Positions 4,774 through 56,449 of a stretch of DNA of 64,000 bases are shown here, piece by piece. The position numbers and the translations under genes were made by a program. The notes under the pieces are model-generated. The model ran no database searches. It saw only the letters and a list, made by a program, of their open reading frames with translations, and had not been told where the DNA came from. The stretch spans positions 1 to 64,000 of IMG/VR virus record IMGVR_UViG_3300050123_000043; one strand, 5' to 3'. Position 1 is the stretch's first letter, and each line of letters begins with the position of its first letter. The DNA is from a virus (taxonomy: Duplodnaviria; Caudoviricetes).

Positions 4774-5490
4774 TTAAAAAGGATTTTCGTTTGTAAAAGG
4801 TTTCCATTCTGTTGTTGTATCGTGTTTCCTTAAATCTCTTATCCTACGATATGTGACCCAAGTGATTGCTTGTAATTGGTGCGGTAATATGTCTAACTGT
4901 TTTGCAGCCTGTATAAAGCAGCGTTGAAAGAAGTCATATTGCGCCCTAGTTAAGTCTCCATACTTTTCATTCAAAGCATAAACGTTATCAGGGTTCTGTA
5001 TACAACATGCTATAGCATGTCTGTCTATTGTTACGTCCGTAATTATATCAGGATTAATCATATTAAGGAAAAACCCCTTAGTTTTAAATCCTGCATTCGC
5101 AATTGAAAGGGCATTATAAATATCCGGTTCCGCACTCAAGTTAAGAATTCTCTTAGCTTTGTTCGTTTGAACTAGGGATTTAATACGTCTGGTTGGATTA
5201 TAAAGGAATGACAAGGCAAAGCGTTTATTTTCGACCCAACCGGTTTGGGGGCTGAAAGCTGCAATGATCCCAGCAGCCTGTTGCAAGCTTATTCCGAACC
5301 TTGATGCAAGTTCCCTGCAATACTTGTTGGCTTCATTATACCACGTTAAACCGTCCTTTAATTCGCTAAGGGAGGCAAGGGAATAAAACCGTAGTATTGA
5401 GTTAATGCACTTGCGTTCAGTCAGCAATTGATTTTTAAACCTTTGATTTTTCATTGAATATTTGTTTTGCCCATTGGTTGAAGTCTCCAT
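4774..5490 (-). CDS. Phage protein of a putative alpha-helical DNA-glycosylase-like family
   Basis: WYxxA..AGIIAAFSPQTGWxxN, KTxxF, VTIDRHA and LQAITW motifs; start METSTN. Confidence 0.5.
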   Translation of the reverse strand: METSTNGQNKYSMKNQRFKNQLLTERKCINSILRFYSLASLSELKDGLTWYNEANKYCRELASRFGISLQQAAGIIAAFSPQTGWVENKRFALSFLYNPTRRIKSLVQTNKAKRILNLSAEPDIYNALSIANAGFKTKGFFLNMINPDIITDVTIDRHAIACCIQNPDNVYALNEKYGDLTRAQYDFFQRCFIQAAKQLDILPHQLQAITWVTYRRIRDLRKHDTTTEWKPFTNENPF

Positions 5491-5612
5491 AATCGTCTGG
5501 TACTTCAATATGGTGGATTGTTTTGTTTGGCTTAATACCCTTTGGTTGCAGATAGGGATCATAACCAAACAATCTAATTAGGATTAACCGAATAGTTTTC
5601 TTTACCATAAAA

Positions 5613-5882
5613 TTATTTTAGGGGATTAAATGTAGTTGAAATAAATATCCATTCTGTTTTCCCTTCGCCCTTGCCTATAATTTCAAAGCCTTTTTTCTGC
5701 AACCACATCTTTGCATTTTCCCATACGGAGTAATCCCAATCATGATTTATAGTTATAGATTCACGAAATCGGAATGAAGATATTTTAATCCTTTCCCCAC
5801 GCGAATTAGATTCAGGAATATATTTTGCTGTGATAAGATGGAAATTAGGAAGGGAGAGGGCCTTCATATCTTTTAAATTCAT
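5613..5882 (-). CDS. Hypothetical phage protein
   Basis: ITAKYIPESNSRGERIKI motif. Confidence 0.6.
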   Translation of the reverse strand: MNLKDMKALSLPNFHLITAKYIPESNSRGERIKISSFRFRESITINHDWDYSVWENAKMWLQKKGFEIIGKGEGKTEWIFISTTFNPLK

Positions 5883-6040
5883 GATTTTTTATTTAATTGA
5901 ATGATGTGAAATATAATGAAGGCAATGATGTTTACCATATTGAGGTAAAGGAAAGAAAAAAGTGCAAGTGAAGTAAGCTATTAAGAAACCCATTACAGCC
6001 CCTATCAATATAACAGAGACATGTAGTAATATTCTTTTAA

Positions 6041-6277
6041 TCATTTCAATTTTGTTTTAAGTGAATCTAATTCCAGCCTTGTAAGATAATCTAATCCTAC
6101 TGTATCTTTGTCTTGAACAAAAATAACAGAGGTATACCCTCTATTATCTGTGATTTGTTTTATTATCTTGTTTGGGTTAATGTTTGTTTTTATACCAGTT
6201 AAGATCAACATTAGTGAAATAATTGGTGTAAGCAAAGCAAAAAGTAAGATTGATTCGTCTCTGTAAGTTTGTTTCAT
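6041..6277 (-). CDS. Small membrane-anchored protein
   Basis: N-terminal hydrophobic segment. Confidence 0.5.
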   Translation of the reverse strand: MKQTYRDESILLFALLTPIISLMLILTGIKTNINPNKIIKQITDNRGYTSVIFVQDKDTVGLDYLTRLELDSLKTKLK

Positions 6278-7389: not shown

Positions 7390-8253
7390 AGTAAAAGTAC
7401 TCATTCTTAAATAATAACCAATATATAGTTATCCACAATATTTGGAAGTCTCAATATTATTTCGTATGCGCTAAAACGTACTATGCGAATATCTTTGTAT
7501 ATGTGACAGGATATTTGATTGATCCTATTAGCCCCCTTTGGGGGTTGGGGGCTGTAGACAACCAGAAGGAATAAATAATGAATTCCCCCTCCCCGCTTCA
7601 ATCCATTACCGACAACCTGTCATAATCTTATGCGCTAAAATGTATATGCGCTATAACGTACATAGTATGGAATGGTTCTTATTATGGGGGTTTGGGCCTT
7701 TTAATAGACAATATTCTCTAATAAGGACCGCATTCCCAGGACGGTCCTATCCTCCCAAAACAAACCACCACCCCCATCCCCAGACTCATTCCGGTATGTA
7801 CACTTTAACGCATATACATTATAAATCATATTGGTTATGTCAACTACTATGTATTACCATGTATGTTTTAGCGCATATTCCCAATCCCCCCCTTATTTTT
7901 AAAATTGGACAGAATCTAGGATTGGGAATTGAAAACAGAATTGGGAACGATGCCGGGGGTGGGAGGGCAGTCCCAAAGTTGGACGGCAGCCAAGTTGATG
8001 GTGGGTCTATCTGAGGACCCCCACACCCTATTTCCGTTTCAAATCGGTTCAAATCACGAAACTTTAACATTTCATTGGGGATTATATTGATTTAAAAAGC
8101 GTATCTTTGCCACCGGCCTTCCGTACTAAGGCCCTAACAGGCCGCACAAGGACGGTAAGATGGGGGATACTATATAAAAGACCCCCCCCCCTCCATATTG
8201 GACACTTTGTCCAATAACAATGTACGCTCTAGCGCATATGCGTTAAAACGTAC
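7370..8253. repeat. Eight dispersed copies of a 17-bp motif, TATGCGCTAAAACGTAC, in both orientations
   Basis: Starts at 7370, 7465, 7629, 7645, 8237 (+) and 7798, 7861, 8222 (-). Confidence 0.85.
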
Positions 8254-11272: not shown

Positions 11273-11437
11273 TTATGTACGAAGATTTATTAAAGGACCC
11301 TCCCGACACTGAGGAGGACATTCCAGACATTCTTCAACCCCCAGGCCCCGGAGTTCCGGTAGCCGGTCTGTGCTTTGCTGAAAGATTATAACAAAACTCA
11401 GTGATAATTATCATTGGATTTTGTGATAAAAATAAAA

Positions 11438-11459
11438 TTATAACAAAATTTTGTTATAA
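11438..11459. promoter_or_regulatory. 22-bp palindromic operator-like site TTATAACAAAATTTTGTTATAA
   Basis: Perfect palindrome; copies or variants at 11386, 19348, 20304, 20344, 26063, 26085, 40783, 42231, 42302, 56364, 56427. Confidence 0.8.
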
Positions 11460-11461
11460 AA

Positions 11462-11493
11462 TTTGGTAGATTAAAAAATTCTTCTTAGGTTTG
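11462..11493 (+). promoter_or_regulatory. Bacteroidota sigma-A promoter upstream of tRNA block 1
   Basis: TTTG-N20-TAGGTTTG. Confidence 0.75.
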
Positions 11494-11511: not shown

Positions 11512-11637
11512 ATGGTAGTAGGTATAATAATTGGTTTCGTTGCTGGCTTTGTATTGGCATTTGGAATCTTTCATAATAACAAAGCTAAAGCTGATGCGCT
11601 TGTTACAACCGTAGAAGCTGAAGCAAAAAAAGTTTAA
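11512..11637 (+). CDS. Small single-TM protein (41 aa)
   Basis: MVVGIIIGFVAGFVLAFGIFHNNKAKADALVTTVEAEAKKV. Confidence 0.55.
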   Translation: MVVGIIIGFVAGFVLAFGIFHNNKAKADALVTTVEAEAKKV

Positions 11638-11668: not shown

Positions 11669-11764
11669 ATGCAACAATTTACAATGATAGTGGATAATAG
11701 AATTAATGCCGGAGGCAACGAGAAATCTGCCCCAGGGAATCTATTATTTGACACTAGAGGATAA
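11669..11764 (+). CDS. Attenuator leader peptide 1 (MQQFTMIVDNRINAGGNEKSAPGNLLFDTRG)
   Basis: Codons 6-19 encode only block-1 amino acids; overlaps the antiterminator arm. Confidence 0.75.
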   Translation: MQQFTMIVDNRINAGGNEKSAPGNLLFDTRG

Positions 11765-11783
11765 AAGTACATCAAATAATTTG

Positions 11784-11820
11784 AAACCCTGGGGCCAGAA
11801 AGCTCCGGGGTTTTTTGTTT
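11784..11820 (+). terminator. Attenuator terminator 1
   Basis: AAACCCTGGGGC-CAGAAA-GCTCCGGGGTTT plus U-tract; 5' arm also pairs with GCCCCAGGG at 11729-11737. Confidence 0.85.
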
Positions 11821-11825
11821 TATAT

Positions 11826-11898
11826 ACCCTTGTAGCAAACTGGCCGTAGGCAAGAGACTTTTAATCTCTGGGGTTTGGTTCGATTCCAAACGGGGGTA
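11826..11898 (+). tRNA. tRNA-Lys(TTT)
   Basis: Cloverleaf; AGAGA-CTTTTAA-TCTCT. Confidence 0.9.
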
Positions 11899-11925
11899 CT
11901 TTTTCAGTTTATAAGCTTAAAATCC

Positions 11926-11996
11926 TCCTCTGAAGCATTAAAGTGATGCTCCAGACTCTTAATCTGGAGAACTTGGATCGGTACCAGGCAGGGGAA
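11926..11996 (+). tRNA. tRNA-Lys(CTT)
   Basis: CCAGA-CTCTTAA-TCTGG; atypical T-loop ATCGGTA. Confidence 0.85.
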
Positions 11997-12041
11997 CAAA
12001 TGATAAAGATGCGGAGATTAAACCGGTTATTCTCCGCAAAC

Positions 12042-12113
12042 ACATCCTTAGCTCATCGGTAGAGTGGGGCTTTTACACGGCTTAGGTAGAGGGTTCAATT
12101 CCTTCAGGATGTA
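12042..12113 (+). tRNA. tRNA-Val(TAC)
   Basis: Acceptor ACATCCT/AGGATGT; loop TTTACAC; G-U-rich anticodon stem. Confidence 0.8.
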
Positions 12114-12169
12114 CATAATGACCGTCATAACGAACATTTTTAGGCGACAATGTTCGTTATAACAAACAT

Positions 12170-12240
12170 TTTCTCTTCGTTTAATGGAAGGACGACTCGC
12201 TTCTAACGAGTAGGCGGGGTTTCGACTACCTCAGAGAAAA
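12170..12240 (+). tRNA. tRNA-Arg(TCT)
   Basis: ACTCG-CTTCTAA-CGAGT. Confidence 0.85.
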
Positions 12241-12245
12241 CTTAA

Positions 12246-12316
12246 GGCTTGTTAGCTCAACGGCAGAGCGTCCGGTTGTTAACCGGTTGATAATTGTTCG
12301 ATTCAATTACTGGCCT
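12246..12316 (+). tRNA. tRNA-Asn(GTT)
   Basis: CCGG-TTGTTAA-CCGG. Confidence 0.85.
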
Positions 12317-12326
12317 CAAAAATTTA

Positions 12327-12358
12327 TTTGGATTTGACACATATTTATCCTATTTTTG
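12327..12358 (+). promoter_or_regulatory. Internal sigma-A promoter for the nuclease gene
   Basis: TTTG-N20-TATTTTTG. Confidence 0.7.
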
Positions 12359-12364
12359 TGTCAA

Positions 12365-13171
12365 ATGAAACTAAAATTCACAGAAGAAGGGCATTCGTAT
12401 GAGTCAATTCCAGCCGTTTCCTGGACTTCTGTGACTAAACTAGTAGAAAGCTACTGCAATCCTTTTGACGAGAAGGATCAAGCTCTGAGGAGTTCACAGA
12501 ATACGAAATCAAAGTGGTTTGGAATGGACCCAGTGGAGATTATCAAACTCTGGAAGGCTGAAAACCTTCGTTCCACTGATGCCGGAACCTGGGTCCACAA
12601 CAAATGGGAAAAAAATGTTAGCTCTTTAAAGCACAAAGAGTGGGAAGGGAAGAAATTAAAAGTTTTTCCTGGAAAATGGGAAGGAGAAACTAAAATTGCA
12701 CCAGCCCAGGAACTTGAAGAAGGGGTTTACTCTGAACATATTATATATAATGAAAATCTTCAGGTGTGTGGACAGGCTGATATTGTTAATGTTAGGGATG
12801 GTTTTGTAGATATTATTGATTATAAGACTAGTAAGGAGATTGAGGACCACTCTTATGGATTCAAGTATGGAAATGCGAGTATGATGTTGGAACCGGTGAA
12901 CCATTTAGAGGATTGCAACCTTTCTCATTATGTTCTTCAGCTTGGTATCTATATGAGGCTCATCCTGTTAAAGAATCCGGCTCTGAAACCTGGTAAACTG
13001 ATCCTCATTCATGTAAAAATGGATATTAATGAGCTTGATCAATATGGATTTCCTATCCTAAAAAGGACAAAAGAAAACGGATATAAAATTAAAAGAACAA
13101 AAAATTATAATATAAAATACATTGAGAATGAAGTTCGTAGTGTATTAAAAGATCATTATTTAAAATTGTAG
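12365..13171 (+). CDS. PD-(D/E)XK (Cas4/RecB-like) exonuclease
   Basis: SVT, GTWVH, CGQADIV, IIDYKT and YxLQLxxY motifs. Confidence 0.85.
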   Translation: MKLKFTEEGHSYESIPAVSWTSVTKLVESYCNPFDEKDQALRSSQNTKSKWFGMDPVEIIKLWKAENLRSTDAGTWVHNKWEKNVSSLKHKEWEGKKLKVFPGKWEGETKIAPAQELEEGVYSEHIIYNENLQVCGQADIVNVRDGFVDIIDYKTSKEIEDHSYGFKYGNASMMLEPVNHLEDCNLSHYVLQLGIYMRLILLKNPALKPGKLILIHVKMDINELDQYGFPILKRTKENGYKIKRTKNYNIKYIENEVRSVLKDHYLKL

Positions 13172-13316
13172 GGTGGCGAAATTGGTAGACGCAACCGCTT
13201 GTCTCGCGGTCGTGGATAAGGAAATAGATAGTAGATAGACGGTTGACCAGCAATGAATTAACTTCTTTTGTCTACTGTTGAATCCCCACTTAATGGTTCG
13301 ACTCCATTTTCTACAG
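13167..13316 (+). ncRNA. tRNA-like RNA (GTC anticodon) with an ~80-nt structured variable-arm insertion
   Basis: Acceptor TGTAGGG/TTCTACA, class-II-type D arm, ACCGC-TTGTCTC-GCGGT, T arm AATGG-TTCGACT-CCATT. Confidence 0.75.
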
Positions 13317-13322
13317 CTATAT

Positions 13323-13396
13323 TGCGGGATAGAGAAGTGGTCTATCTCAAGGGTCTCATAAGCCCTACATCGTCAGTTCGAATCTGGCTCCCGCAA
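13323..13396 (+). tRNA. tRNA-Met(CAT), initiator-like acceptor
   Basis: TGCGGGA/TCCCGCA; AGGGT-CTCATAA-GCCCT. Confidence 0.85.
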
Positions 13397-13401
13397 CTTT
13401 T

Positions 13402-13472
13402 GCGCCATACGCATTCCGGTAGTGTGCCTGGCTTCCAACCAGGATGAGTCGGTTCGATTCCGACATGACGCA
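13402..13472 (+). tRNA. tRNA-Gly(TCC)
   Basis: CCTGG-CTTCCAA-CCAGG. Confidence 0.85.
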
Positions 13473-13476
13473 CTAA

Positions 13477-13548
13477 GGGAGAAATGCGAGTTCGATTCTC
13501 GCTCTGTCGGCTTCGGCTGACGGATAGTCCAGTGGCTAAGACGCTCCC
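13477..13548 (+). ncRNA. Circularly permuted tRNA-like RNA (acceptor closed by UUCG, no anticodon loop)
   Basis: Order: GGGAG, T arm, TCTGTCGGC-TTCG-GCTGACGGA, D arm, CTCCC. Confidence 0.8.
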
Positions 13549-13555
13549 GTTTTTT

Positions 13556-13626
13556 GACGGGTTCTTATATTGGTAGTAATCTTGGCCTTCACCCAGGAAA
13601 AGACAGTTCGATTCTGTCACTCGTTA
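13556..13626 (+). tRNA. tRNA-Glu(TTC)
   Basis: CTTGG-CCTTCAC-CCAGG (C33). Confidence 0.8.
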
Positions 13627-13632
13627 CACTTT

Positions 13633-13707
13633 CGGAGATCGGTCCGGCCAGGAACGGATGTCGCCTTGTCACGGCGAAGACCGTGGGTTCAAATCCCACA
13701 TTTCCGG
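13633..13707 (+). tRNA. tRNA-Asp(GTC)
   Basis: TCGCC-TTGTCAC-GGCGA; G73. Confidence 0.85.
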
Positions 13708-13833
13708 CAATCCAACTCTCACGCCATAATTTTATGGCGCACCAGGAGAATGAATGAAGTACGACATAGGCCCCCGTAGGTCATTCACGGTGTTTTTAAC
13801 AATTTCACAAGGTTACGAAAAATTGTTTTCTAT

Positions 13834-13911
13834 ATTGGGATAATTCAGTCTGGTCAGAATGCCTGGCTTATATCCAGGTAGTCATTGGTTCAAATCCAAT
13901 TCCCAATACCA
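13834..13911 (+). tRNA. tRNA-Ile(TAT) with encoded CCA
   Basis: CCTGG-CTTATAT-CCAGG; ATTGGGA/TCCCAAT-ACCA. Confidence 0.85.
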
Positions 13912-13979
13912 GTTCGTACAAAGGCACGAATTATTAAAAGATTCGTGCAAATACACAATTTGCAAATTGCGAATTGCAC

Positions 13980-14053
13980 TGACCTATGGCGCAGTTTGGT
14001 AGCGCAGCACTCTGATAAGGTGAAGGTCCCTGGTTCAAATCCAGGTGGGTCAA
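13980..14053 (+). tRNA. tRNA-Ile(GAT)
   Basis: Loop CTGATAA; canonical D and T arms. Confidence 0.9.
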
Positions 14054-14114
14054 CTCTGTTCATATTTTTTCTCTGTTCACGGAAACGCGAACACAGAGAA
14101 AATGTGAACAACCT

Positions 14115-14188
14115 GGGGCCGCATGTTCCGTAGTGGCGAGTCTCACTTGCAATGAGACTGTGATAGGGTGCAACTCCCTTGGGTTCCA
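14115..14188 (+). tRNA. tRNA-Ala(TGC), atypical D and T arms
   Basis: TCTCA-CTTGCAA-TGAGA; G3:U70 present. Confidence 0.75.
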
Positions 14189-14263
14189 CTTATTTTTTTC
14201 CCAAATTTGGAAATGTGAAAAATTTTCGCTATATTGAAATCTTCACATCCAAATTTAAATAAT

Positions 14264-14755
14264 ATGTTAAAGTCCCTCCTAGACAATCCAGAGAAGACCT
14301 TTTTTGGCAAGCTTAGAAACATTGGTTTTGTATTTGCACTGGAATTAATTTACTTAAGTATCATTATTTTTTTATTAAAACAGTTCGATCCTTTTGATTT
14401 AGATAATTTTATACATTCATATAGTTTGCCACATGTAATAGACGCTAATGCTATCGGAATGGTTTTCTTTGCTTGCGTTTGGGCACCCATCTGGGAAGAA
14501 GCGGCTTTCAGGTATGCTCCTATTACGATTGCCAAGAACTTTGGACCCCAATATTTGCTCCCGGTTATAATTATTAGCAGCGTTTTATTTGGTTGGGGAC
14601 ATGGAGATGGGCCTATTAGCCTTCTTATACAGGGAGTTGGGGGATTCTTGTTTTCCCTTCTTTATATCAAAAACGGGTTTAGCTATAAATCTTCAGTAGC
14701 TGCCCACTTCCTTTGGAACGCCTTTCTCATGCTTGCGCTTCCAGTAATAGTTTAA
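14264..14755 (+). CDS. CPBP (CAAX/Abi) family intramembrane metalloprotease
   Basis: APIWEEAAFR, FGWGH and AAHFLWN motifs. Confidence 0.85.
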   Translation: MLKSLLDNPEKTFFGKLRNIGFVFALELIYLSIIIFLLKQFDPFDLDNFIHSYSLPHVIDANAIGMVFFACVWAPIWEEAAFRYAPITIAKNFGPQYLLPVIIISSVLFGWGHGDGPISLLIQGVGGFLFSLLYIKNGFSYKSSVAAHFLWNAFLMLALPVIV

Positions 14756-14811
14756 AATTTATTTTGTAATATCAATTCTTTTAAGTACTTTAGGGTCATA
14801 ATTTAGTTATT

Positions 14812-15588
14812 ATGGCCCTAATTGCTATGGCGGTATATTCCACTGAGGAGAACGGAAAAAATGAATATCTGGATAGAACTCTTCAATCATTAGAAGAGAC
14901 TGTAGATTTTACAAAACATCGTTTAATTCTATCTGTTAATGCTTACACAGCAGAAACTCTTTTGATTTTCAGGAAATTTAAAGGAATGTTTACTCTTATT
15001 TTTAATGATTATAATTTAGGAACCGCTGAAGCAATTAATCTTGCCTGGAAAGATCAATGGCCGAATGAGAATCTTATCAAGATGGACGATGATGTGATTT
15101 TTCACGCTAATGGATGGGTTGATCGCATGGAAGAAGCGATTCAGAGAGATCCAACGATAGGTCAATGTGGTCTAAAAAGAAGAGATTGTACAGAAACCCC
15201 CTGGAACCCCGATCCCTTTTATAAATCAAAACTTGAAATGCTTCCTCACTCTCCCGGTGAAAAGTGGATTGTGGTAGAAGAAGTATCCCACGTTATGGGG
15301 ACTTGCGTTATGCATTCCTCCGCACTACTTGACAAAGTAGGATACCTTTATCAACCAAAACTTTATGGCTTTGATGATTCGTTCATGAGTCTTCGGTCCC
15401 GGATCGCGGGATTTAGGAATGTATTTTTGCCTGGTATAGATATTGAACATATTGATAGAGGAGATACTGGGTTCCAAAAATGGAAAGAGAAACATGCTGG
15501 AGAGTGTTGGCAAGAATATATGCAAGTGGTAAGAGATTATACATCAGGTAAAAAAAGTGTTTATTATAATCCATTCGAAAATGAATGA
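14812..15588 (+). CDS. Glycosyltransferase family 2
   Basis: NLGTAEAIN, KMDDD and YGFDD motifs (GT-A fold). Confidence 0.85.
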   Translation: MALIAMAVYSTEENGKNEYLDRTLQSLEETVDFTKHRLILSVNAYTAETLLIFRKFKGMFTLIFNDYNLGTAEAINLAWKDQWPNENLIKMDDDVIFHANGWVDRMEEAIQRDPTIGQCGLKRRDCTETPWNPDPFYKSKLEMLPHSPGEKWIVVEEVSHVMGTCVMHSSALLDKVGYLYQPKLYGFDDSFMSLRSRIAGFRNVFLPGIDIEHIDRGDTGFQKWKEKHAGECWQEYMQVVRDYTSGKKSVYYNPFENE

Positions 15589-16267
15589 TACAATAGTTCT
15601 TACTGCGATATATCATGAGTTTTGGGGAACGCATCACTTTAGAAAATCTGTTGAGAGGGTTGGTCTTGATGTCTATAATGTATTTCCTCCAGATGTTCCA
15701 TTTAAAGGAAATGGTTTTATTTATCAATACTTTTACAAAGCTTTTTTAGATCTTAAAGATAAATACAAAACAGTTATTTATTCGGATGGAGCAGATACAG
15801 TTTTTCAAAAAGCATTTGTACCACCAACCGATAGAATAATTTATTCTGTTGAAAAAGCAATATGGCCTCCTCTTCCGCATCTTAAAGATCTTTATGAAAA
15901 TTATTATAATAAACCTTGGCGTAGAAATGATTGGCCCTGGAAATATTTGAATGGTGGAAATTGGTGTGGTCCTGTTGATCTTCTAATTGAATTCTATGAA
16001 AGATACGGATTGAAAGATTTGACTGGAGATATAAATGGTCAGAAGGAACAAGCTGAAGCATTTATGAAAGCAGATGAAAATTTATTTCCTATTACCTTTG
16101 ATCTTCGTTGTGAATATTTTCAAACAACAGGTTTTGAAAACGTAGGGGATTTTAGTTTAGCAGAAGACAGAAAATCAATTATAAATAACTTAACAGGCAC
16201 CACCCCATGTGTCTTACACGGTAACGGTCGAACCGATATGGGTCCTATTTATGAACGCTGGAAATAA
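15581..16267 (+). CDS. PLOD/procollagen-glycosyltransferase-like GT domain protein
   Basis: YSDGADT, SVEKAIWP, YLNGG and HGNG motifs. Confidence 0.7.
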   Translation: MNDTIVLTAIYHEFWGTHHFRKSVERVGLDVYNVFPPDVPFKGNGFIYQYFYKAFLDLKDKYKTVIYSDGADTVFQKAFVPPTDRIIYSVEKAIWPPLPHLKDLYENYYNKPWRRNDWPWKYLNGGNWCGPVDLLIEFYERYGLKDLTGDINGQKEQAEAFMKADENLFPITFDLRCEYFQTTGFENVGDFSLAEDRKSIINNLTGTTPCVLHGNGRTDMGPIYERWK

Positions 16268-16931
16268 ACCAAACATTGTTATCATCGGTGGTGGTAATCA
16301 TGCTCAGTATTGTATTGACATTATTGAAAGAGAAGGCAAGTACAATATCATAGGGATTATTGATTCAATCAAAAACCTTGGAGATGATGTATTCGGATAT
16401 AAGGTTATTGGAAAACAAGAACACGTAAATTCTCTTTCAGATACTTATGGTTTTACGGCAGGTATAATTACAGTAGGAGATAACTGGGCAAGATATAAAA
16501 TATATTCAGATATTATTGAAACTTATCCCTCATTTACATTTGTAAACGCAATTCATCCTTCAGTAATAATAGGCAATAATGTAAAGATAGGTAAAGGAGT
16601 AATAGCAATGGCGGGTGTAATATTTAATCCTGGAGCAAATATTGGAGATTTTACTTTCTTTGCAACAGGTGCTCAAGTGGAACATGATTGTTATATTGGA
16701 GATTTCGCAAGTATATCCGCAGGATCTGTTCTTGGTGGTCATGTTCATATAGGAGACTTTGCTGCTATTACTCTAGGAGTAACAATAGTTGATCGCGTTA
16801 CCATTGGAAAAAATACAGTAATTGGATCAGGATCTCTTGTAACAAAAGATATACCAGACAATGTTTTGGCTTATGGAAGTCCTGCGAAAATAATAAGAAC
16901 AAGAGAACCAGGCGAAAGATTTTTAAAATAA
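16251..16931 (+). CDS. NeuD/PglD-family sugar acetyltransferase
   Basis: IIGGGNHA, hexapeptide repeats, VEHDC, GSPAK. Confidence 0.9.
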   Translation: MNAGNKPNIVIIGGGNHAQYCIDIIEREGKYNIIGIIDSIKNLGDDVFGYKVIGKQEHVNSLSDTYGFTAGIITVGDNWARYKIYSDIIETYPSFTFVNAIHPSVIIGNNVKIGKGVIAMAGVIFNPGANIGDFTFFATGAQVEHDCYIGDFASISAGSVLGGHVHIGDFAAITLGVTIVDRVTIGKNTVIGSGSLVTKDIPDNVLAYGSPAKIIRTREPGERFLK

Positions 16932-16935
16932 TAAC

Positions 16936-17727
16936 ATGTCACCATCCCACGCAATAGAATTAAACCATAGAGGTTATACTATTATACCAAATTTGATACC
17001 GCCTATTATTGTTGATGGATTGAGATATGCGTTGAACTTTTCATTTGATAAACACAGACAGATACAAATTGATAATAATAATGATATAGTTACGGAAGGC
17101 GTTGCTCTACATGTTTTATTAGATAATAGAAGATTTATTGAATTCTTACAATATCTTATGTTTGATATTAAGTTGTATTCCTTTCTGGAAGAAAATTATT
17201 TTAAATCAAAATTCATATTGAATTCGATGAGTGGCTTGAATAACTTACCAAACCAACCAAACTTTTCGTCCATAGTTCACCGTGATTTGAGATTTTATAC
17301 TGGCGAAATACCAGTCATGATAAATGCCCTTGTGATGGTTGACGAATTCACTGAAGATAATGGTCCCACCTTGTTATTACCATATTCTCATATTGATTTC
17401 GAAGAAAAACCAACCAATGAATACTTTCGAAGAAGTTCAGTGAAAGCTCTCGGTGAAGCCGGTAGTGTTTTATTATTTAATGCAAACGTTTGGCACGCAT
17501 CTAGCTTAAATACTTCTCGTAACGGAAGAAGAGCATTACCAATAACATTCACTAAATCACTTATAAAGCAGTTATTGGATTATCCCAGGGCTTTAGGATA
17601 CGATAGAATGGAAAGCTTTAGCGAACCAATGCAACAGCTTCTTGGGTATCATGCCCGTGTACCAGCCAACTTAGATGAATGGTATCAACCTTTTGATAAA
17701 CGATTTTATAAAAAAAACCAAGATTAA
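16936..17727 (+). CDS. Phytanoyl-CoA dioxygenase-family 2OG-Fe(II) oxygenase
   Basis: HRD, FTEDNGPT..PYSH, WH..S.N and RRA motifs. Confidence 0.85.
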   Translation: MSPSHAIELNHRGYTIIPNLIPPIIVDGLRYALNFSFDKHRQIQIDNNNDIVTEGVALHVLLDNRRFIEFLQYLMFDIKLYSFLEENYFKSKFILNSMSGLNNLPNQPNFSSIVHRDLRFYTGEIPVMINALVMVDEFTEDNGPTLLLPYSHIDFEEKPTNEYFRRSSVKALGEAGSVLLFNANVWHASSLNTSRNGRRALPITFTKSLIKQLLDYPRALGYDRMESFSEPMQQLLGYHARVPANLDEWYQPFDKRFYKKNQD

Positions 17728-17737
17728 AATAAACCAT

Positions 17738-17983
17738 ATGCCAATATTAATTTCTCGAAAACAGAATATAGTTCGATCATATACTTTTGAACTTAATCCA
17801 ATAGAAACTCAAAAATTTGAAGATGAGATTTTGAGTAATTTTTGGGATGCAACCAAAATTCCTGAAGACGAAAGAGCAGAGTTCAAAGTAACGTATACTA
17901 TAGATTTTTATAAAAAACCAGTAGAAGAAGAACCCCAACCCCAGGATGGGTCACATATTATACTAGGATTACCTTCTATCTAA
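17738..17983 (+). CDS. Hypothetical protein
   Basis: Start trimmed to MPILIS. Confidence 0.5.
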   Translation: MPILISRKQNIVRSYTFELNPIETQKFEDEILSNFWDATKIPEDERAEFKVTYTIDFYKKPVEEEPQPQDGSHIILGLPSI

Positions 17984-17985
17984 TA

Positions 17986-18017
17986 TTTGGTAATTTCAAT
18001 TATTTTACATATATTTG
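17986..18017 (+). promoter_or_regulatory. Sigma-A promoter of tRNA block 2
   Basis: TTTG-N20-TATATTTG. Confidence 0.8.
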
Positions 18018-18021
18018 TTTT

Positions 18022-18090
18022 ATGAAACATATCAATTCATATTATTCACTGAGTCTACTCTTATCGTCTTACGATACGGACCTGGGATAA
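18022..18090 (+). CDS. Attenuator leader peptide 2 (MKHINSYYSLSLLLSSYDTDLG)
   Basis: 12 consecutive Ser/Tyr/Leu codons upstream of the Leu/Ser/Tyr tRNAs. Confidence 0.8.
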   Translation: MKHINSYYSLSLLLSSYDTDLG

Positions 18091-18125
18091 TATTGAATTA
18101 ACCGAACTGATTCGGAAAAGTTATT

Positions 18126-18159
18126 ACCCTGGGATTTTTATCCTGGGGTTTTTTGTTTT
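18126..18159 (+). terminator. Attenuator terminator 2
   Basis: ACCCTGGGAT-TTTT-ATCCTGGGGT plus U-tract. Confidence 0.85.
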
Positions 18160-18233
18160 AGGGATGTGCTGCAATTGGTAGATAGCTACGCCTCAAAAGC
18201 GCATGTGTGTGGGTTCGAATCCCTCCTTCCCTA
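18160..18233 (+). tRNA. tRNA-Leu(CAA), short variable arm
   Basis: Loop CTCAAAA. Confidence 0.8.
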
Positions 18234-18262
18234 CTAAAAGCGTTACTAACGCTTTTCAGTAT

Positions 18263-18342
18263 ACCTTCGTGACTTATACGAAATGGCACAGTTACCGGTC
18301 TTAGAAACCGGGTCCTTGTGGGTTCGACTCCCACCGAAGGTA
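18263..18342 (+). tRNA. tRNA-Leu(TAG), short variable arm
   Basis: CCGGT-CTTAGAA-ACCGG. Confidence 0.85.
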
Positions 18343-18379
18343 CAATGTTTCCCTTATTAATGAGGTAAACAATTTATAA

Positions 18380-18459
18380 CCCTCTGTGGCTTATAGAAAT
18401 AGGTACACTTAACCGACTTAAAATCGGAGCTTGTCATGGTTCGAATCCATGCAGGGGGA
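18380..18459 (+). tRNA. tRNA-Leu(TAA), short variable arm
   Basis: CCGA-CTTAAAA-TCGG. Confidence 0.8.
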
Positions 18460-18464
18460 CATAC

Positions 18465-18551
18465 GGAAGGCCCCAGTTGACTGAGGTACACGGTCCTGAA
18501 CACCGCTAGGAGGCTAATACCCTTGTAAGAGTTGGACTCTCTTGCTTTCCG
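18465..18551 (+). tRNA. tRNA-Ser(TGA)
   Basis: GGAAGGC/GCTTTCC-G; loop CCTGAAC; long variable arm. Confidence 0.75.
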
Positions 18552-18669
18552 CTTTATATCTTTTAACATATAAAATCAGTAATATATTACCGATTATATC
18601 TAATAACGTATAATAAGGTAGAATATTTTGCAACAATCGGCAATTTATTACCGATTTTGCCGAAAGTTT

Positions 18670-18753
18670 GGAAAGTTAATTAGCAAGAGCTAACCCTCCC
18701 CGCTAAGGAGTGGGACCGGGAAACTGGTTGTGGTTCGTGTCCACAACTTTCCG
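18670..18753 (+). tRNA. tRNA-Ser(GCT)
   Basis: GGAAAGT/ACTTTCC-G; loop CCGCTAA; long variable arm. Confidence 0.8.
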
Positions 18754-18765
18754 CAAGAGGAAACA

Positions 18766-18797
18766 TTTGGAAGTTTCCTCTTTATTTCGTATGTTTG
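18766..18797 (+). promoter_or_regulatory. Internal sigma-A promoter for the HNH gene
   Basis: TTTG-N20-TATGTTTG. Confidence 0.7.
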
Positions 18798-18801
18798 TAA
18801 A

Positions 18802-19248
18802 ATGAAAAAGATATGTTCAAAATGCAATATTGAAAAAGAAGTACAAGATTTCAATAAACGCACAAACAGTAAAGACGGATATGATCCAAGATGTAGAACT
18901 TGTACAAAAGAACGAGATGTTTTAAGATATACTAAAAATCCCAAACTTTTTAAAGAAAGGGCAAAAGTTAAAAACACTTTTATAAGAGATAGAAACAGAC
19001 AATTTTTAATTGAATATTTAATTGATAAATCATGTATTGATTGTGGAGAAACCGATGCTGTTGTATTGGAGTTCGATCATATAGAACCTTCAACAAAAAT
19101 TGATTGTATTTCAGAAATGATTCCACGATCAAGTATTGAAAATATTAAAACTGAATTAAATAAATGTGAAATAAGATGTGCAAATTGTCATAGAAGAAAA
19201 ACAGCTAAACAATTTGGCTGGAAAAGAAAACACCTGGAATTATGTTAA
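18802..19248 (+). CDS. HNH endonuclease with N-terminal Zn-finger
   Basis: CSKC/CRTC; CIDCG..LEFDH..CANCH. Confidence 0.85.
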   Translation: MKKICSKCNIEKEVQDFNKRTNSKDGYDPRCRTCTKERDVLRYTKNPKLFKERAKVKNTFIRDRNRQFLIEYLIDKSCIDCGETDAVVLEFDHIEPSTKIDCISEMIPRSSIENIKTELNKCEIRCANCHRRKTAKQFGWKRKHLELC

Positions 19249-19272
19249 GATTAGATAAAACTTTACTCTTAT

Positions 19273-19343
19273 TGATTGAATACCAGGGCAGTAGGCACTG
19301 TCTGTAAAACAGAGGCACGTAGGTTCGAGTCCTACTCAGTCAA
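19273..19343 (+). tRNA. tRNA-Tyr(GTA), short variable arm
   Basis: CTGT-CTGTAAA-ACAG; TGATTGA/TCAGTCA. Confidence 0.8.
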
Positions 19344-19370
19344 CAAATTATAACTGAATTTTGTTATAAA

Positions 19371-19402
19371 TTTGGAAATTTGAAAAAGTATTATTAAGTT
19401 TG
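19371..19402 (+). promoter_or_regulatory. Sigma-A promoter of tRNA block 3
   Basis: TTTG-N20-TAAGTTTG, abutting a 22-bp palindrome variant at 19348-19369. Confidence 0.8.
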
Positions 19403-19413
19403 CAGTTAAGATT

Positions 19414-19506
19414 ATGAAACAGACTATCAACACGCGATTTTTTTGGCATCAACCGACCCCTCAAGGTCCAAGGGCTAAAGTTATGCGTGATACAGATATA
19501 GGTTAA
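19414..19506 (+). CDS. Attenuator leader peptide 3 (MKQTINTRFFWHQPTPQGPRAKVMRDTDIG)
   Basis: 11 consecutive Thr/Arg(CGA)/Phe/Trp/His/Gln/Pro codons upstream of those tRNAs. Confidence 0.8.
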   Translation: MKQTINTRFFWHQPTPQGPRAKVMRDTDIG

Positions 19507-19534
19507 ATAATCTCTTTTCTGCTTGCAACTTTTC

Positions 19535-19570
19535 AACCCTTGATTTTTCTAAACCGAGGGTTTTTTATTT
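19535..19570 (+). terminator. Attenuator terminator 3
   Basis: AACCCTTGATTT-TTCT-AAACCGAGGGTT plus U-tract. Confidence 0.8.
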
Positions 19571-19646
19571 CTAGTAATGGAGGAGTCCGGCCATCCTCGC
19601 GTGCCCTGGAAGCATGAGAACCCAGGTTCAAATCCTGGTTACTAGA
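19571..19646 (+). tRNA. tRNA-Pro(TGG)
   Basis: CGTGC-CCTGGAA-GCATG; C1:G72, A73. Confidence 0.85.
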
Positions 19647-19651
19647 CAAAT

Positions 19652-19723
19652 TCCTCTTAAGCTTTAATGGTGAAGCTCCAGTTTTGTAAACTGGTGAATG
19701 GGGATCGTTACCTCAAAGAGGAT
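19652..19723 (+). tRNA. tRNA-Thr(TGT)
   Basis: CCAGT-TTTGTAA-ACTGG. Confidence 0.85.
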
Positions 19724-19807
19724 CGAAGCCGGTTACCAAAATGTAAAAAAGCCGCCAGAACGTGTCTGGTTACTTGTTAAGACAAGTTGTAAAAAAGTTT
19801 GGGTTAT

Positions 19808-19882
19808 GTGTCTTGGGCAGGTCTGGTGACATTGCATCCGTTTGAAGAACGGACTAACAAGGTTCGATTCCTTGAGGATACG
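19808..19882 (+). tRNA. tRNA-Phe(GAA)
   Basis: TCCGT-TTGAAGA-ACGGA (G37). Confidence 0.8.
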
Positions 19883-19887
19883 CTTAT

Positions 19888-19959
19888 TCCTGGATCGTAT
19901 AACGTGTAGTACAGCCGTCTCTGACACGGTTAGCAATTGTTCGACTCAGTTTCCGGGAA
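19888..19959 (+). tRNA. tRNA-Gln(CTG)
   Basis: GCCGT-CTCTGAC-ACGGT. Confidence 0.85.
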
Positions 19960-19964
19960 CTTAA

Positions 19965-20035
19965 ACCCCTTTAGCATAAAGGTAATGCTGGTGGCCTTGA
20001 CCCACCAGAAGTTCGGTCGGTACGAGCAGGGGGTT
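19965..20035 (+). tRNA. tRNA-Gln(TTG)
   Basis: GGTGG-CCTTGAC-CCACC. Confidence 0.8.
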
Positions 20036-20037
20036 CT

Positions 20038-20107
20038 GTGAATCTAGTTCAATGGTAGAACGGCTGGCTGTGAACCAGGCAATTAGGGTTCGATCCCCGG
20101 TTTCACA
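20038..20107 (+). tRNA. tRNA-His(GTG)
   Basis: CTGG-CTGTGAA-CCAG; lacks the G-1:C73 pair. Confidence 0.8.
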
Positions 20108-20153
20108 CAACGCATGAATTTTTAATAAAAATTCATGCAAAATATTAACATAA

Positions 20154-20225
20154 CCTCCTTTCGTTCAACGAATAGGACCTCTGGCAACGAACCAGAAAAT
20201 AAAGGTTTGATTCCTTTAGGGAGGT
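20154..20225 (+). tRNA. tRNA-Arg(ACG)
   Basis: TCTGG-CAACGAA-CCAGA (A33). Confidence 0.8.
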
Positions 20226-20230
20226 CAATT

Positions 20231-20299
20231 ACGTGCCAGGCTAAGGCAGCCAAGCAAACTCCAAATCTGTAGGAGATAGTTCGATTCTATCGGTGCGTG
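20231..20299 (+). tRNA. tRNA-Trp(CCA)
   Basis: Loop CTCCAAA; ACGTGCC/GGTGCGT-G. Confidence 0.8.
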
Positions 20300-20791
20300 C
20301 AAATTATAACAAAAAGCAATTATAATTACTTTTTGTGATAATATTCACACAAAATTTTGTGATAAATGTTGGAAGTGTCAAAAGTATTGTTTTACTTTGC
20401 ACCCAACTTTCACCAGTAAAGGACACGCCACCACGAAAAAACAATGATATGAAGTGGCGCAACTACGTCCTGCCAATCTATGGCCCCAGTTTGGGAGGGG
20501 GGCCGGGGGGAGGGCCTCAACCCTTCATATTATTGATTTATAATACGTTAAATGATTACTGGTTAAATAGTTGGCCTGGTAAAGCTTATAAATTTGGTTA
20601 TGTGCTTTGAATTACATATATTTACAGAGGTAAAAAGCACAAAAAATATAAAAAGAGATTCAAGGAATCAATTTAAGATATTACCATCAAAAAAACACCT
20701 ATCTGGTTATAATCAAAAAACGTAATCTGCGTCCATTTAAAACGTTTAAGCAGATGGCGGTGAATTAGGTGACACCGTTTCCCGGTGGTAT

Positions 20792-23965: not shown

Positions 23966-26068
23966 ATGAGTATAATAACCAGTCCTGAATTTTTTATTAA
24001 TATAAAAAAGATTCCAGATAAAACTTCCAAAGAATATCTGCCTTTCTTCAGGGCAGAAATGAATAAAGTAAAACAAGGTATAACCATTGCTGGAGTAAGG
24101 ATTCCGGGATGGTTATATTGGCATATAAATCACTGGGTAATTGATATAGATGTTCCAGTACAAGGCACAAATATTAATTATGTTGAGCGTAGGCCATCAC
24201 ATCCCTTTTTAAGAGACAATGATTGGATTATTGCAGAGCTTATTGAAAGAGCAGAAAGTTTAAAAAAAGGTGTATTGCTTCTTGGTACTCGTCAGCTTGG
24301 TAAAAGCGAAATAGGAGCTTCTTATAACGGGCGAAGAGGTATTGCTTTTGAAAATAGTCAAAACGTTATTGCTGGTCTTTCTGATCCGGATTTAAAACTT
24401 CTCCTTGGTAAGCTGGATAGAGGATTTACAAATCTTCATTCATACTTTAAACCAATAAAAATAATAAACGACCCCAAAAAAGAAATTATTCTTGGATATA
24501 AAGATCCCCAGGGAGAAAGAGTTAAATATTCTGAATTCCTAATTCGAAATTTAGATTCAGGAAAAAATACTGAAAACTTAGCGGGTCCTACAACTTCTTC
24601 ACTTACTTTGGATGAGTGCGGTAAAGGAGATTTCCTTGAAGCGTTCATTGCTGCTAAACCTGCTCTTGAAACCGCGTATGGTTGGAGAGGTATGCCTTTA
24701 TTTATAGGAACTTCTGGTAGCTTTGATAAGGCTGAGGATCTTCAAAGGTTCCGAGAAAATCTTGACACTTATAATTTTATTGAAGTTGAACTTAAGGATG
24801 AAAAAAAACAGGATATATATTTTATTCCAGGTTGGATGTCTTCTCGTGCAAAGAGAAAAAAGATAAGATTATCTACTTATAAAAAAGTACCCAAGGGAAG
24901 CGAGCTTGATACAATTGCTATTCATGTTGTAGAAAATCCTGAAGAAGAGATACAAAAAATTTTAGATTATAGAGAGTCATTAAAAGTTGCGGGAGAAATA
25001 ACATTGATGAAGAAAGAGACAATGTATTATCCTTTAAATGAAGAGGAGTTATTTTTAATTGACGATAGTGATAATATATTTTCTGATGTAAAAGAAATAT
25101 GTAAAGCTCATTTACTTTATTTGGAAACTATTGAAGTTAGTGAAGAATACGGATGGATGACAAGGGATGATAATGGTAAACCAAAATTCGTTCCAACTAA
25201 GAATGCTTTTCCTATTAAAGACTTTCCTGCTGGAGAACATGAAGATAAAGACGCTCCTATTATTATATGGTCTCATCCAATGGAAGGGCAGGAATTCGGG
25301 ATTTTACATGTAGGTGGAATTGACCCTTATAACCAGGATGAATCATTTTATTCTCCTTCTCTGGGAACCTTATATATCTTCAGACGAACATACGATCCTT
25401 TAAAAGGCAATCATCAAGAATCATTTGTTGCTTCATATTCTGCTCGTACAAAAATTATAAGTAAATGGAGAGAACAAGTAAGACTTCTTTTAGAATATTA
25501 TGGTGCTACCGCTTTACCGGAAAATGAAGAACCTGGTCTTATTCGTTGGTTTGATGAAAAACATATTGGGCATTATCTTGAAGATGGACTTGATCTGGCA
25601 AAGGAAATAAATCCCGGTACTACCAGTAATCGAAACAAAGGATTATCAGCAACTACGGCAAACATAAGATATGGAAATGGTCTTTTAAAATCTCATATTA
25701 ACGAAGATCTTGTTATGGGCCAGAATCCTTTAAGTGGAGAGAATATAATAAAGAAAGGAGTAATCCGGATAAAGGATAAGGTTTTATTAAAGGAGGTAAT
25801 TGCTTATAAACCAGCAATGAGTATTAAAAGTAGGGCAGGAACCTCTTCTAATGCAAGAACCAAAAAGAAGGCTACCAACGTTGACCGGATTGTAGGGGCA
25901 AGACATGCCCTGATCCTGGCAAAGTTAAAAGATAAGTATTTTCCCCTGGCTAGAATAAAGAACCCTCTCTCCACAAATAAGCCTGAAAAAAAGGCTATTA
26001 AAAGTCCTTTTACCGGTATAAATAGTCCTTTCGGATCTCGAAGATTTCCCTTCGGTGGAAAATTATAA
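23966..26068 (+). CDS. terL: Terminase large subunit
   Basis: Walker A GTRQLGKS, Walker B LTLDECG, nuclease GGIDPY and NVDRI. Confidence 0.9.
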   Translation: MSIITSPEFFINIKKIPDKTSKEYLPFFRAEMNKVKQGITIAGVRIPGWLYWHINHWVIDIDVPVQGTNINYVERRPSHPFLRDNDWIIAELIERAESLKKGVLLLGTRQLGKSEIGASYNGRRGIAFENSQNVIAGLSDPDLKLLLGKLDRGFTNLHSYFKPIKIINDPKKEIILGYKDPQGERVKYSEFLIRNLDSGKNTENLAGPTTSSLTLDECGKGDFLEAFIAAKPALETAYGWRGMPLFIGTSGSFDKAEDLQRFRENLDTYNFIEVELKDEKKQDIYFIPGWMSSRAKRKKIRLSTYKKVPKGSELDTIAIHVVENPEEEIQKILDYRESLKVAGEITLMKKETMYYPLNEEELFLIDDSDNIFSDVKEICKAHLLYLETIEVSEEYGWMTRDDNGKPKFVPTKNAFPIKDFPAGEHEDKDAPIIIWSHPMEGQEFGILHVGGIDPYNQDESFYSPSLGTLYIFRRTYDPLKGNHQESFVASYSARTKIISKWREQVRLLLEYYGATALPENEEPGLIRWFDEKHIGHYLEDGLDLAKEINPGTTSNRNKGLSATTANIRYGNGLLKSHINEDLVMGQNPLSGENIIKKGVIRIKDKVLLKEVIAYKPAMSIKSRAGTSSNARTKKKATNVDRIVGARHALILAKLKDKYFPLARIKNPLSTNKPEKKAIKSPFTGINSPFGSRRFPFGGKL

Positions 26069-26173
26069 CAAAACTTAGTGATAATTATAACAAAATTTTG
26101 TGATAATTTGTTATAATTTAAAAATAATTGGTAATTTTGTAGTTACTTTAATTATAATTTGTTATAACTCAAT

Positions 26174-40758: not shown

Positions 40759-40784
40759 CCCCCGTTTCTACGGGGGTTTTTTTT
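40759..40784 (+). terminator. Intrinsic terminator
   Basis: CCCCCGT-TTCT-ACGGGGG plus T-tract. Confidence 0.85.
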
Positions 40785-40855
40785 ATAACACTTTTTTGTT
40801 ATAATTTCTTTGTTTTACCGATAATTGTATTATCTTTGTACAAAATGTGTTCATT

Positions 40856-42202: not shown

Positions 42203-42232
42203 TAACCCCCTTTTAGGGGGTTTTTTATTTTT
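42203..42232 (+). terminator. Intrinsic terminator
   Basis: AACCCCCT-TTT-AGGGGGTT plus T-tract. Confidence 0.85.
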
Positions 42233-42331
42233 ATAACAAAATTTTGTGATAATTTTCCTAAATAAGAAAATATTCCATAATTTTGATCATTCTGATCAAA
42301 TTTATCACAAAATTTTGTTATAATTTTTATT

Positions 42332-56362: not shown

Positions 56363-56449
56363 TTTATAACAAAATTTTGTTATAAATTTCGGATTTACAG
56401 GAAATTATAATAAATTTGTGTGATAAATCTCACAGAATTTTGTTATAAA

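Follow-up and report, generated by a model that had tools for sequence, protein, structure and literature searches.

How a phage decides when to transcribe transfer RNA (tRNA) genes of its own is the question raised by positions 11,669 to 20,299 of the window, a 64-kb stretch that forms the first part of the 97.8-kb IMG/VR virus record IMGVR_UViG_3300050123_000043. The DNA of this phage is found in peat and permafrost metagenomes, and the terminase, portal and major head proteins encoded in the window match tailed-phage families. Its tRNA genes form three blocks, each preceded by a short open reading frame (ORF), referred to as the leader, and by an intrinsic terminator. Judging from the sequence, each block is probably a transcription unit headed by a ribosome-mediated attenuator. 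The leaders and the tRNA blocks are as follows, with the term run denoting an uninterrupted series of codons for amino acids served by the block.

Leader ORF 1: 11669-11764, plus strand; 31 codons and a stop, MQQFTMIVDNRINAGGNEKSAPGNLLFDTRG; the run is residues 6-19.
Leader ORF 2: 18022-18090, plus strand; 22 codons and a stop, MKHINSYYSLSLLLSSYDTDLG; the run is residues 6-17.
Leader ORF 3: 19414-19506, plus strand; 30 codons and a stop, MKQTINTRFFWHQPTPQGPRAKVMRDTDIG; the run is residues 7-17.
tRNA block 1 (11826-14189, plus strand), first part: Lys(ttt), Lys(ctt), Val(tac), Arg(tct), Asn(gtt); from ARAGORN and Rfam.
tRNA block 1 (11826-14189, plus strand), part after a nuclease gene: Met(cat), Gly(tcc), Glu(ttc), Asp(gtc), Ile(tat), Ile(gat), Ala(tgc).
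tRNA block 2: 18160-19344, plus strand; Leu(caa), Leu(tag), Leu(taa), probable Ser(tga), Ser(gct), a 148-residue ORF, Tyr(gta).
tRNA block 3: 19571-20300, plus strand; Pro(tgg), Thr(tgt), Phe(gaa), Gln(ctg), Gln(ttg), His(gtg), Arg(acg), Trp(cca).

The run of leader 1 (11684-11725, 14 codons) reads M I V D N R I N A G G N E K, that of leader 2 (18037-18072, 12 codons) is composed of Ser, Tyr and Leu throughout, and that of leader 3 (19432-19464, 11 codons) reads T R F F W H Q P T P Q. These uninterrupted runs cover 10/10, 3/3 and 7/7 amino-acid types of their own blocks, with zero types from outside. A first-pass annotation of this DNA had described runs of 11-14 codons that match their own blocks exactly, and the recount bears this out. 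It had also claimed that Arg is split at the codon level, which is likewise the case: AGA stands in leader 1 with Arg(tct) in the block, and CGA stands in leader 3 with Arg(acg).

The match was weighed against chance using the amino-acid frequencies of 18 long ORFs of the window as background. Own-block runs of this length have P = 3.4e-3, 1.6e-8 and 6.2e-6 for leaders 1, 2 and 3, respectively, and an unbroken in-set run that also holds all types has P = 1.4e-4 for leader 1 and 5e-6 for leader 3. Matched to the two blocks that are not their own, the window leaders give unremarkable runs of 0-7 codons. A look-elsewhere control ranked 1341 ATG ORFs of 12-70 codons from both strands of the whole genome. 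Leader 2 is top for the Leu/Ser/Tyr set (12 codons, with 7 for the next ORF), and so is leader 3 for its own set (11, with 7 for the next). Leader 1 comes second by length (14 codons) and is the sole listed run with 10 types; the longer one, in a nested frame at 7859-8014, has 16 codons but just 8 types. A chance origin of the leader runs is rejected on these run statistics and the genome-wide ranking.

We then asked how leader and block correspond in related phages, which were reached mainly through TerL. A TerL protein search gave 182 relatives, 30 of which were aligned, and the alignment led to 8 IMG/VR loci and 23 metagenome loci, many of them too short or without upstream flank. As a single-protein query, TerL found no relatives in IMG/VR; the nuclease gene of block 1 found two loci (L001, L002), both without tRNAs; and at the DNA level GenBank phages included no close relative, the matches being single tRNAs only. 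By tblastn, the cultured Leptolyngbya phage Lbo-JY46 (PP438436.1, identical to L035) was found, whose TerL is 41% identical. Nine related contigs (L012, L016, L004, L025, L005, L020, L006, L008 and L035), with TerL identities of 37-67%, share the layout upstream of TerL. Every block start inside a related locus has a small ORF, a hairpin and a T-run, and usually a single candidate ATG ORF adjoins the terminator.

The blocks of the relatives were annotated with ARAGORN at graded thresholds, Infernal matches and a hand scan. This gave 24 listed units, 23 of which were scored (nine contigs including the window); with Lbo-JY46 added there are 26. Five loci had no scorable content: L009 and L017 carry no tRNAs, L019 is cut in block 3, and L029 and L014 have one tRNA each. 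L013 duplicates L004 and L010 duplicates L006, and the block-1 leaders of L004 and L020 fall beyond the contig end or the locus. L021 has a Leu/Ser/Tyr-rich leader, MKHNFSLLSLLLSYSLNYDRDIIV, and a terminator ahead of a Leu-like tRNA, and was dropped from all counts because its block content could not be settled.

The first-pass annotation had named related arrays as the place where the correspondence should be looked for. The outcome favours its reading: the nine related contigs keep the correspondence, and their leaders follow tRNAs that sit in other blocks. In 22/22 comparable units the own-block run is the longest among the blocks of that phage; its P ranges from 1.6e-8 to 1.6e-2 over the 23 units, and all block types are present in the run of 19/23. 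When codons 2-20 of the own leader are counted over 26 units, 146/151 block amino acids are present versus 131/369 non-block ones, an odds ratio of 53 that is uncorrected for the ancestry these units share. AGA occurs in the run of 6/6 block-1 leaders, and CGN in 8/8 block-3 leaders whose block has Arg(acg).

The co-variation of leader codons with tRNAs placed in another block (Cys, Asp, Asn, Arg-ACG, Thr and Gly) is the strongest evidence, and we regard it as decisive. In L005 and Lbo-JY46, tRNA-Cys belongs to block 1, and their leaders 1, MNSRTVIDNIRNAEGCKKALVGNVCFYDGGCGCN and MINSIDIRNIDIVCAEGVNKCSCGLSFMCDGGCGCN, have Cys in the run. Block 1 of L006 includes Arg(acg), and its leader 1, MQSTIIIVGRGAERTIKCGSGVSMYYDDI, has both AGA and CGC and a run without Asp and Asn; Asp and Asn are in block 3 of that phage, and the 15 codons of the run in leader 3, MINNWHNTFTFTPNQPDRARVYCAN, include Asn and Asp but none for Arg. 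A fourth leader, MQSRSINTTNNTCGGYNNVGSRVCCIC, is present in L025, and the block that it precedes is made up of Cys, Asn, Thr and Gly. In leader 1 of L025, DRMEDVIIADEKR, the run comprises all 8 block types (Asp, Arg, Met, Glu, Val, Ile, Ala, Lys) and is without Asn and Gly, the last Arg codon being CGT, which is not read by the Arg(tct) of the block. The run of its leader 3, HRPFQWFQPF, is without Thr.

The leader is followed by RNA elements that could convert its translation into a decision on transcription. In each unit a G-rich segment directly after the run, segment 2, can pair with the C-rich 5′ arm of the terminator, segment 3. In the window these elements are located as follows.

Intrinsic terminator 1: 11783-11822, plus strand; 13-base-pair stem at 11783-11814, -20.9 kcal/mol, z -3.8, then a U-tract.
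Intrinsic terminator 2: 18126-18158, plus strand; 10-base-pair stem at 18126-18149, -14.4 kcal/mol, z -3.75, then a U-tract.
Intrinsic terminator 3: 19535-19569, plus strand; stem at about 19535-19562, -10.5 kcal/mol, z -3.5; U-run at 19561-19566.
Segment 2 of unit 1 (antiterminator strand): 11728-11752, plus strand; its core GCCCCAGGG at 11729-11737 pairs with CCCTGGGGC at 11787-11795.
Segment 2 of unit 2: 18080-18093, plus strand; 2:3 pairing z -1.5, p 0.09.
Segment 2 of unit 3: 19468-19475, plus strand; CCAAGGGC; 2:3 pairing z -1.9, p 0.05.

In all three window units 2-4 bases separate the end of the U-tract from the first tRNA, which begins at 11826, 18160 and 19571, respectively, and in 24/24 units a hairpin and a T-run stand immediately ahead of the first tRNA. 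The best duplex of each leader with the 5′ arm of its terminator was compared with dinucleotide shuffles. Over the 23 units, this 2:3 duplex has a mean z of -3.1, with p <= 0.05 in 16/23, and segment 2 begins -4 to +24 bases from the end of the run. In unit 1 the pairing reaches -28.9 kcal/mol (z -6.1), the own arm ranks 1 of 23, and the full-length fold chooses this pairing. Hence the earlier claim that the 3′ part of each leader pairs with the terminator arm stands firmly for leader 1 and marginally for leaders 2 and 3.

Across the 23 units, segment 2 fits its own arm better (mean -13.7 kcal/mol) than the arms of other units (mean -9.0 kcal/mol), and 0/20,000 permutations equal this difference. 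The own arm is ranked first in 8/23 units and among the top five in 18/23. The better fit of own arms indicates that segment 2 co-evolves with its own terminator, and this match supports the attenuation logic of trp/thr type that had been proposed for the locus.

Upstream, the leaders are accompanied by promoter-like motifs of the form TTTG-N17-23-TAnnTTTG, which we take to be the Bacteroidota promoter consensus. Just 8 such motifs exist on the plus strand of the 97.8-kb genome; three precede the leaders, and two more lie inside blocks 1 and 2 (12327 and 18766).

Promoter-like motif of unit 1 (TTTG, 20 bases, TAnnTTTG): 11462-11493, plus strand; 175 bases upstream of the ATG of leader 1; it would serve both a 41-residue ORF and this leader.
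Promoter-like motif of unit 2: 17986-18017, plus strand; 4 bases from the end of the -7 box to the ATG.
Promoter-like motif of unit 3: 19371-19402, plus strand; 11 bases ahead of the ATG, and preceded by a palindrome at 19347-19369.

When the relatives are included, 22/26 leaders have a promoter-like motif upstream. The single layout described for the three units by the first-pass annotation holds for ORFs, hairpins and U-tracts; it does not hold for the promoter of leader 1, which is 175 bases away with a 41-residue ORF in between. A Bacteroidota host, which that annotation had named, is not established: the motif fits the consensus, but for the nearest relative in culture a cyanobacterial host is on record.

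These elements suggest how the units may work. The ORFs, runs, terminators, 2:3 complementarity and co-variation among the phages are direct observations. That the leaders are translated, in which direction the switch operates and what triggers it physiologically (starvation or host anticodon nucleases, as the first-pass annotation proposed) are points that we infer from sequence. The promoter would drive a short leader ORF, often nearly without 5′ untranslated region, and the early leader codons would constitute an inventory of the amino acids (for Arg, of the codon family) served by the downstream tRNAs. If charged cognate tRNA, of host and phage together, is short, the ribosome would stall on the run and leave segment 2 free. 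Free segment 2 would capture segment 3 as it emerges, so that the terminator is blocked and RNA polymerase enters the tRNA block. When translation of the run is fast, the ribosome would cover segment 2 and the terminator would form. The outcome would be an OR-gated negative feedback in which the whole block is topped up as soon as any one member is limiting. As the codons are shared with host tRNAs, what the sensor would register is the total charged pool.

We think it likely that this family of phages runs a codon-resolved monitor of the translation capacity of the cell, each leader being an OR-gate over up to a dozen tRNA species and each block being switched on only on shortage. The phage would gain autonomous tRNA homeostasis and an automatic answer to the depletion or cleavage of host tRNAs, and tRNA genes would for the first time join the known targets of leader-peptide attenuation.

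The proposed switch was examined by masking the ribosome footprint at three places and folding the nascent transcript. With the ribosome in mid-run, the 5′ arm of the terminator is sequestered in 21/23 nascent transcripts. When the same script is applied to the E. coli K-12 leaders thrL, hisL, leuL and trpL, the arm is sequestered in 0/4 without ribosome, 4/4 with a stalled ribosome and 0/4 with the ribosome at the stop codon. In terms of 2:3 pairing, these four controls (z -4.6, -1.2, -1.8 and -0.9, respectively) are no better than the phage units. The stop codon lies 3-38 bases past segment 2 in 21/23 units and inside segment 2 in the other two. Taken together, the position of the stop codon and the switch folding imply that the decision is kinetic, depending on whether the ribosome is over segment 2 as the arm emerges, or that the details differ from the trp model.

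Several results weigh against attenuation as we propose it. In the phage units the 5′ arm is also sequestered without ribosome (15/23) and with the ribosome at the stop codon (16/23), and static folding separates the states less cleanly than in the E. coli attenuators. The 1:2 protector pairing, which joins the run to segment 2, is clear in some units, among them window unit 2 in its fold, but weak overall (mean z -1.1; z < -2 in 4/23). The 2:3 pairing of window leaders 2 and 3 is marginal when they are taken alone. Transcription from the promoter-like motifs within blocks 1 and 2 could reach the distal tRNAs without passing the gate; the leaders list these distal tRNAs nevertheless, from which we argue that read-through matters for them.

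Further counterpoints come from the relatives. The phages share ancestry and the unit counts are not independent, and several tRNAs rest on relaxed ARAGORN or on the hand scan. Some leader codons are without a partner in the block: Thr codons in leader 3 of L025 (outside the run) and of L008, where no Thr tRNA was found in the block; Tyr codons in leader 2 of Lbo-JY46, where no Tyr tRNA was found; His codons in leader 3 of L016 and L004, where no His tRNA was detected; and Val codons in leader 1 of L012, where no Val tRNA was detected. Leader 1 of Lbo-JY46 also has Val codons, and the sole candidate tRNA, at 2168-2241, has an ambiguous anticodon loop. In the complete 126-kb relative G004, the genome to which L008 belongs, 0/8 dispersed single tRNAs (L040-L047) have a leader-terminator unit.

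Most tRNAs of G004 are scattered singly, and a leader-terminator unit is present only at its Pro-Asp-Phe-Gln block. In Lbo-JY46, a promoter-like motif and an annotated 74-residue coding sequence (5776-6060) occupy the place of Ser(gct) and Tyr of block 2. The record of this phage names a cyanobacterial host, yet its promoters show the same TTTG / TAnnTTTG motif.

Of the other explanations, the one that survives best holds that the leaders are translated sensors of tRNA supply whose read-out is not the 2:3 pairing but Rho loading, RNase access or polymerase pausing, the hairpin being a fixed partial terminator. We give it a small chance of being correct. It would account for the weak 1:2 pairing and for the lack of a clean three-state switch in static folding in most units, which sets them apart from the four E. 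coli controls. It leaves aside that segment 2 fits its own terminator arm far better than the arms of other units and that it has a constant place after the run, for which a fixed terminator has no need.

A reversed logic, in which smooth translation of the leader promotes read-through as a licensing step or positive feedback, seems improbable. The antiterminator is still possible with the ribosome at the stop codon in 16/23 units, as this logic would have it. However, most units place the stop codon 19-31 bases upstream of the core stem, too far for a ribosome at termination to melt the hairpin; with the ribosome stalled in the run, segment 2 is free in 21/23 units; and the arrangement matches that of the E. 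coli attenuators, in which read-through follows from stalling.

That the hairpins are plain insulating terminators or processing signals behind untranslated chance frames or small peptides is hardly credible: several leaders do have little or no 5′ untranslated region downstream of the promoter-like motif, and their translation is deduced from sequence, but the run statistics and genome-wide ranking, leader compositions that track block content while residue order drifts, the codon-family split of Arg, and a promoter directly ahead of the terminator, which is senseless for an insulator, all speak against it. The same pattern, a block-tracking composition with drifting residue order, leads us to reject a functional small peptide.

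If ribosome-mediated attenuation of the blocks is correct, it would account for the sorting of phage tRNA genes into fixed blocks. Phages would then be gauging the speed of decoding for individual codons and providing tRNAs when needed, not constitutively, and their tRNA arrays would be linked to the contest over the tRNA pools of the host. In addition, the units would offer compact natural sensors that follow the supply of many tRNAs together. As the cultured relative Lbo-JY46 (PP438436.1) carries the same units, the proposal is directly testable.

Other features of the locus surround these units. Three ORFs lie within or beside them.

PD-(D/E)XK nuclease gene within block 1: 12365-13171, plus strand; Pfam PF12705, with a promoter-like motif of its own at 12327-12358.
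Cys-rich 148-residue ORF interrupting block 2: 18802-19248, plus strand; no Pfam match, with a promoter-like motif ahead at 18766-18797.
Hydrophobic 41-residue ORF between the promoter-like motif and leader 1: 11512-11637, plus strand; no Pfam match.

The 41-residue product is composed of one hydrophobic helix and an Ala/Lys-rich tail. At about 1059-1290 of L012, upstream of leader 1, there is a positional analogue with no detectable sequence similarity to it. In contigs from three DNA runs (X5, where the contig is 112.7 kb long, X9 and X11), 98 other letters stand in place of the 331 at 11716-12048, an exchange that in these strains affects the 3′ part of leader 1 together with terminator 1 and the two Lys tRNAs.

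A 23-base palindrome of the type TTATAAC-AAAATTTT-GTTATAA occurs at 8 sites, compared with 0 expected in shuffles; sites are at 11437-11459, 19347-19369, 26062-26106, 40783-40805, 42230-42252, 42301-42323 and 56363-56385. It adjoins the upstream side of several promoter-like motifs, including those of leaders 1 and 3 and not that of leader 2. It looks like a candidate operator of a DNA-binding regulator, which would add a second layer of control.

With default settings, ARAGORN finds 20 tRNA genes at 11826-20226 and a Cys tRNA at 23432, and most of its calls in the window are confirmed by Rfam. Relaxed thresholds add Ala(tgc) at 14116, Leu(tag) at 18272, Ser(gct) at 18670 and Trp(cca) at 20231, the last of which was also recovered in the hand scan. 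The relaxed ARAGORN label Ser(cga) for 18380-18460 was rejected, as the structural scan reads this stretch as Leu(taa). The stretch at 18465-18552 is probably Ser(tga), an unconfirmed assignment made by position alone. In the window and all relatives, block 2 contains Leu, Ser and Tyr tRNAs only; these are the bacterial tRNAs with a long variable arm. Several of the phage Leu and Tyr tRNA genes span just 72-75 bases. Directly before tRNA-Met, the conserved stretch 13167-13320 has a tRNA-like start (D-arm-like GGTAGAC) and a counterpart at 6195-6289 of L006. ARAGORN in intron mode reads it as a tRNA with a 70-base intron, and Rfam gives no match for it.

The proposed units can be compared with the four closest known systems. 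Like them, T-box riboswitches sense tRNA charging and switch a terminator and an antiterminator ahead of translation-related genes; unlike them, T-boxes bind uncharged tRNA directly and involve neither a ribosome nor an ORF. A T-box reading of the phage units was rejected, as Rfam searches of the window, the relatives and Lbo-JY46 gave no match to the T-box model at E <= 1.

The trn operon of Anabaena sp. PCC 7120 (PMC8421152, PMC10272220), the nearest case in terms of function, is an extra tRNA array induced under translational stress. It resembles the phage blocks in being a supernumerary, horizontally spread tRNA array that is off until translation is impaired (PMC8421152, PMC10272220). Its control is described there as acting at the promoter, through tandem direct repeats over the -10 box and start site and the RHH repressor TrcR (PMC8421152, PMC10272220), and the terms "attenuat-", "leader peptide" and "terminator" are absent from the main text of PMC8421152. 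In the window, a palindrome lies upstream of 2/3 leader promoters and is different from the Anabaena trn repeats. A full-text literature search found no published account of leader-peptide attenuation of tRNA genes.

In the pheST operon, the pheM leader subjects phenylalanyl-tRNA synthetase to leader-peptide attenuation. As in the phage units, the gene product belongs to the translation apparatus and serves the sensed codons; differently from them, the cargo is a synthetase gene, a single amino acid is sensed, and tRNA genes are not involved.

The phage units also resemble the multivalent attenuators of enterobacteria, among which thrL senses Thr and Ile, and ilvL senses Ile, Val and Leu. These attenuators, represented here by the E. 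coli controls, and the phage units both have a short ORF with a multi-amino-acid run, followed by a terminator whose 5′ arm can pair with a segment after the run. In thrL, 2:3 pairing has z -4.6 and segment 2 starts 7 bases past the run, as in a phage unit. The Rfam families Trp_leader, His_leader, Thr_leader and Phe_leader give no match at the gathering score, and none at all in the window. Below threshold, unit 3 of L020 (7036-7122) matches Trp_leader with 33.9 bits (cut-off 41), and 1949-2009, 5466-5526 and 6131-6251 of Lbo-JY46 match the Thr, Phe and His leaders with 23-25 bits (cut-offs 49-55). These matches are suggestive and speak to shape only.

The phage units differ from the enterobacterial attenuators in that the cargo is tRNA genes instead of biosynthetic enzymes, and in that their runs inventory 3 to 12 tRNA species, with Arg split by codon family. 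They also have a stop codon further past segment 2, a less clean static switch and often near-leaderless transcripts. Leader-peptide attenuation is textbook knowledge for amino-acid operons. The mechanism class of the phage units is the textbook one, while their cargo, their multi-tRNA inventory leaders and their phage setting are new.

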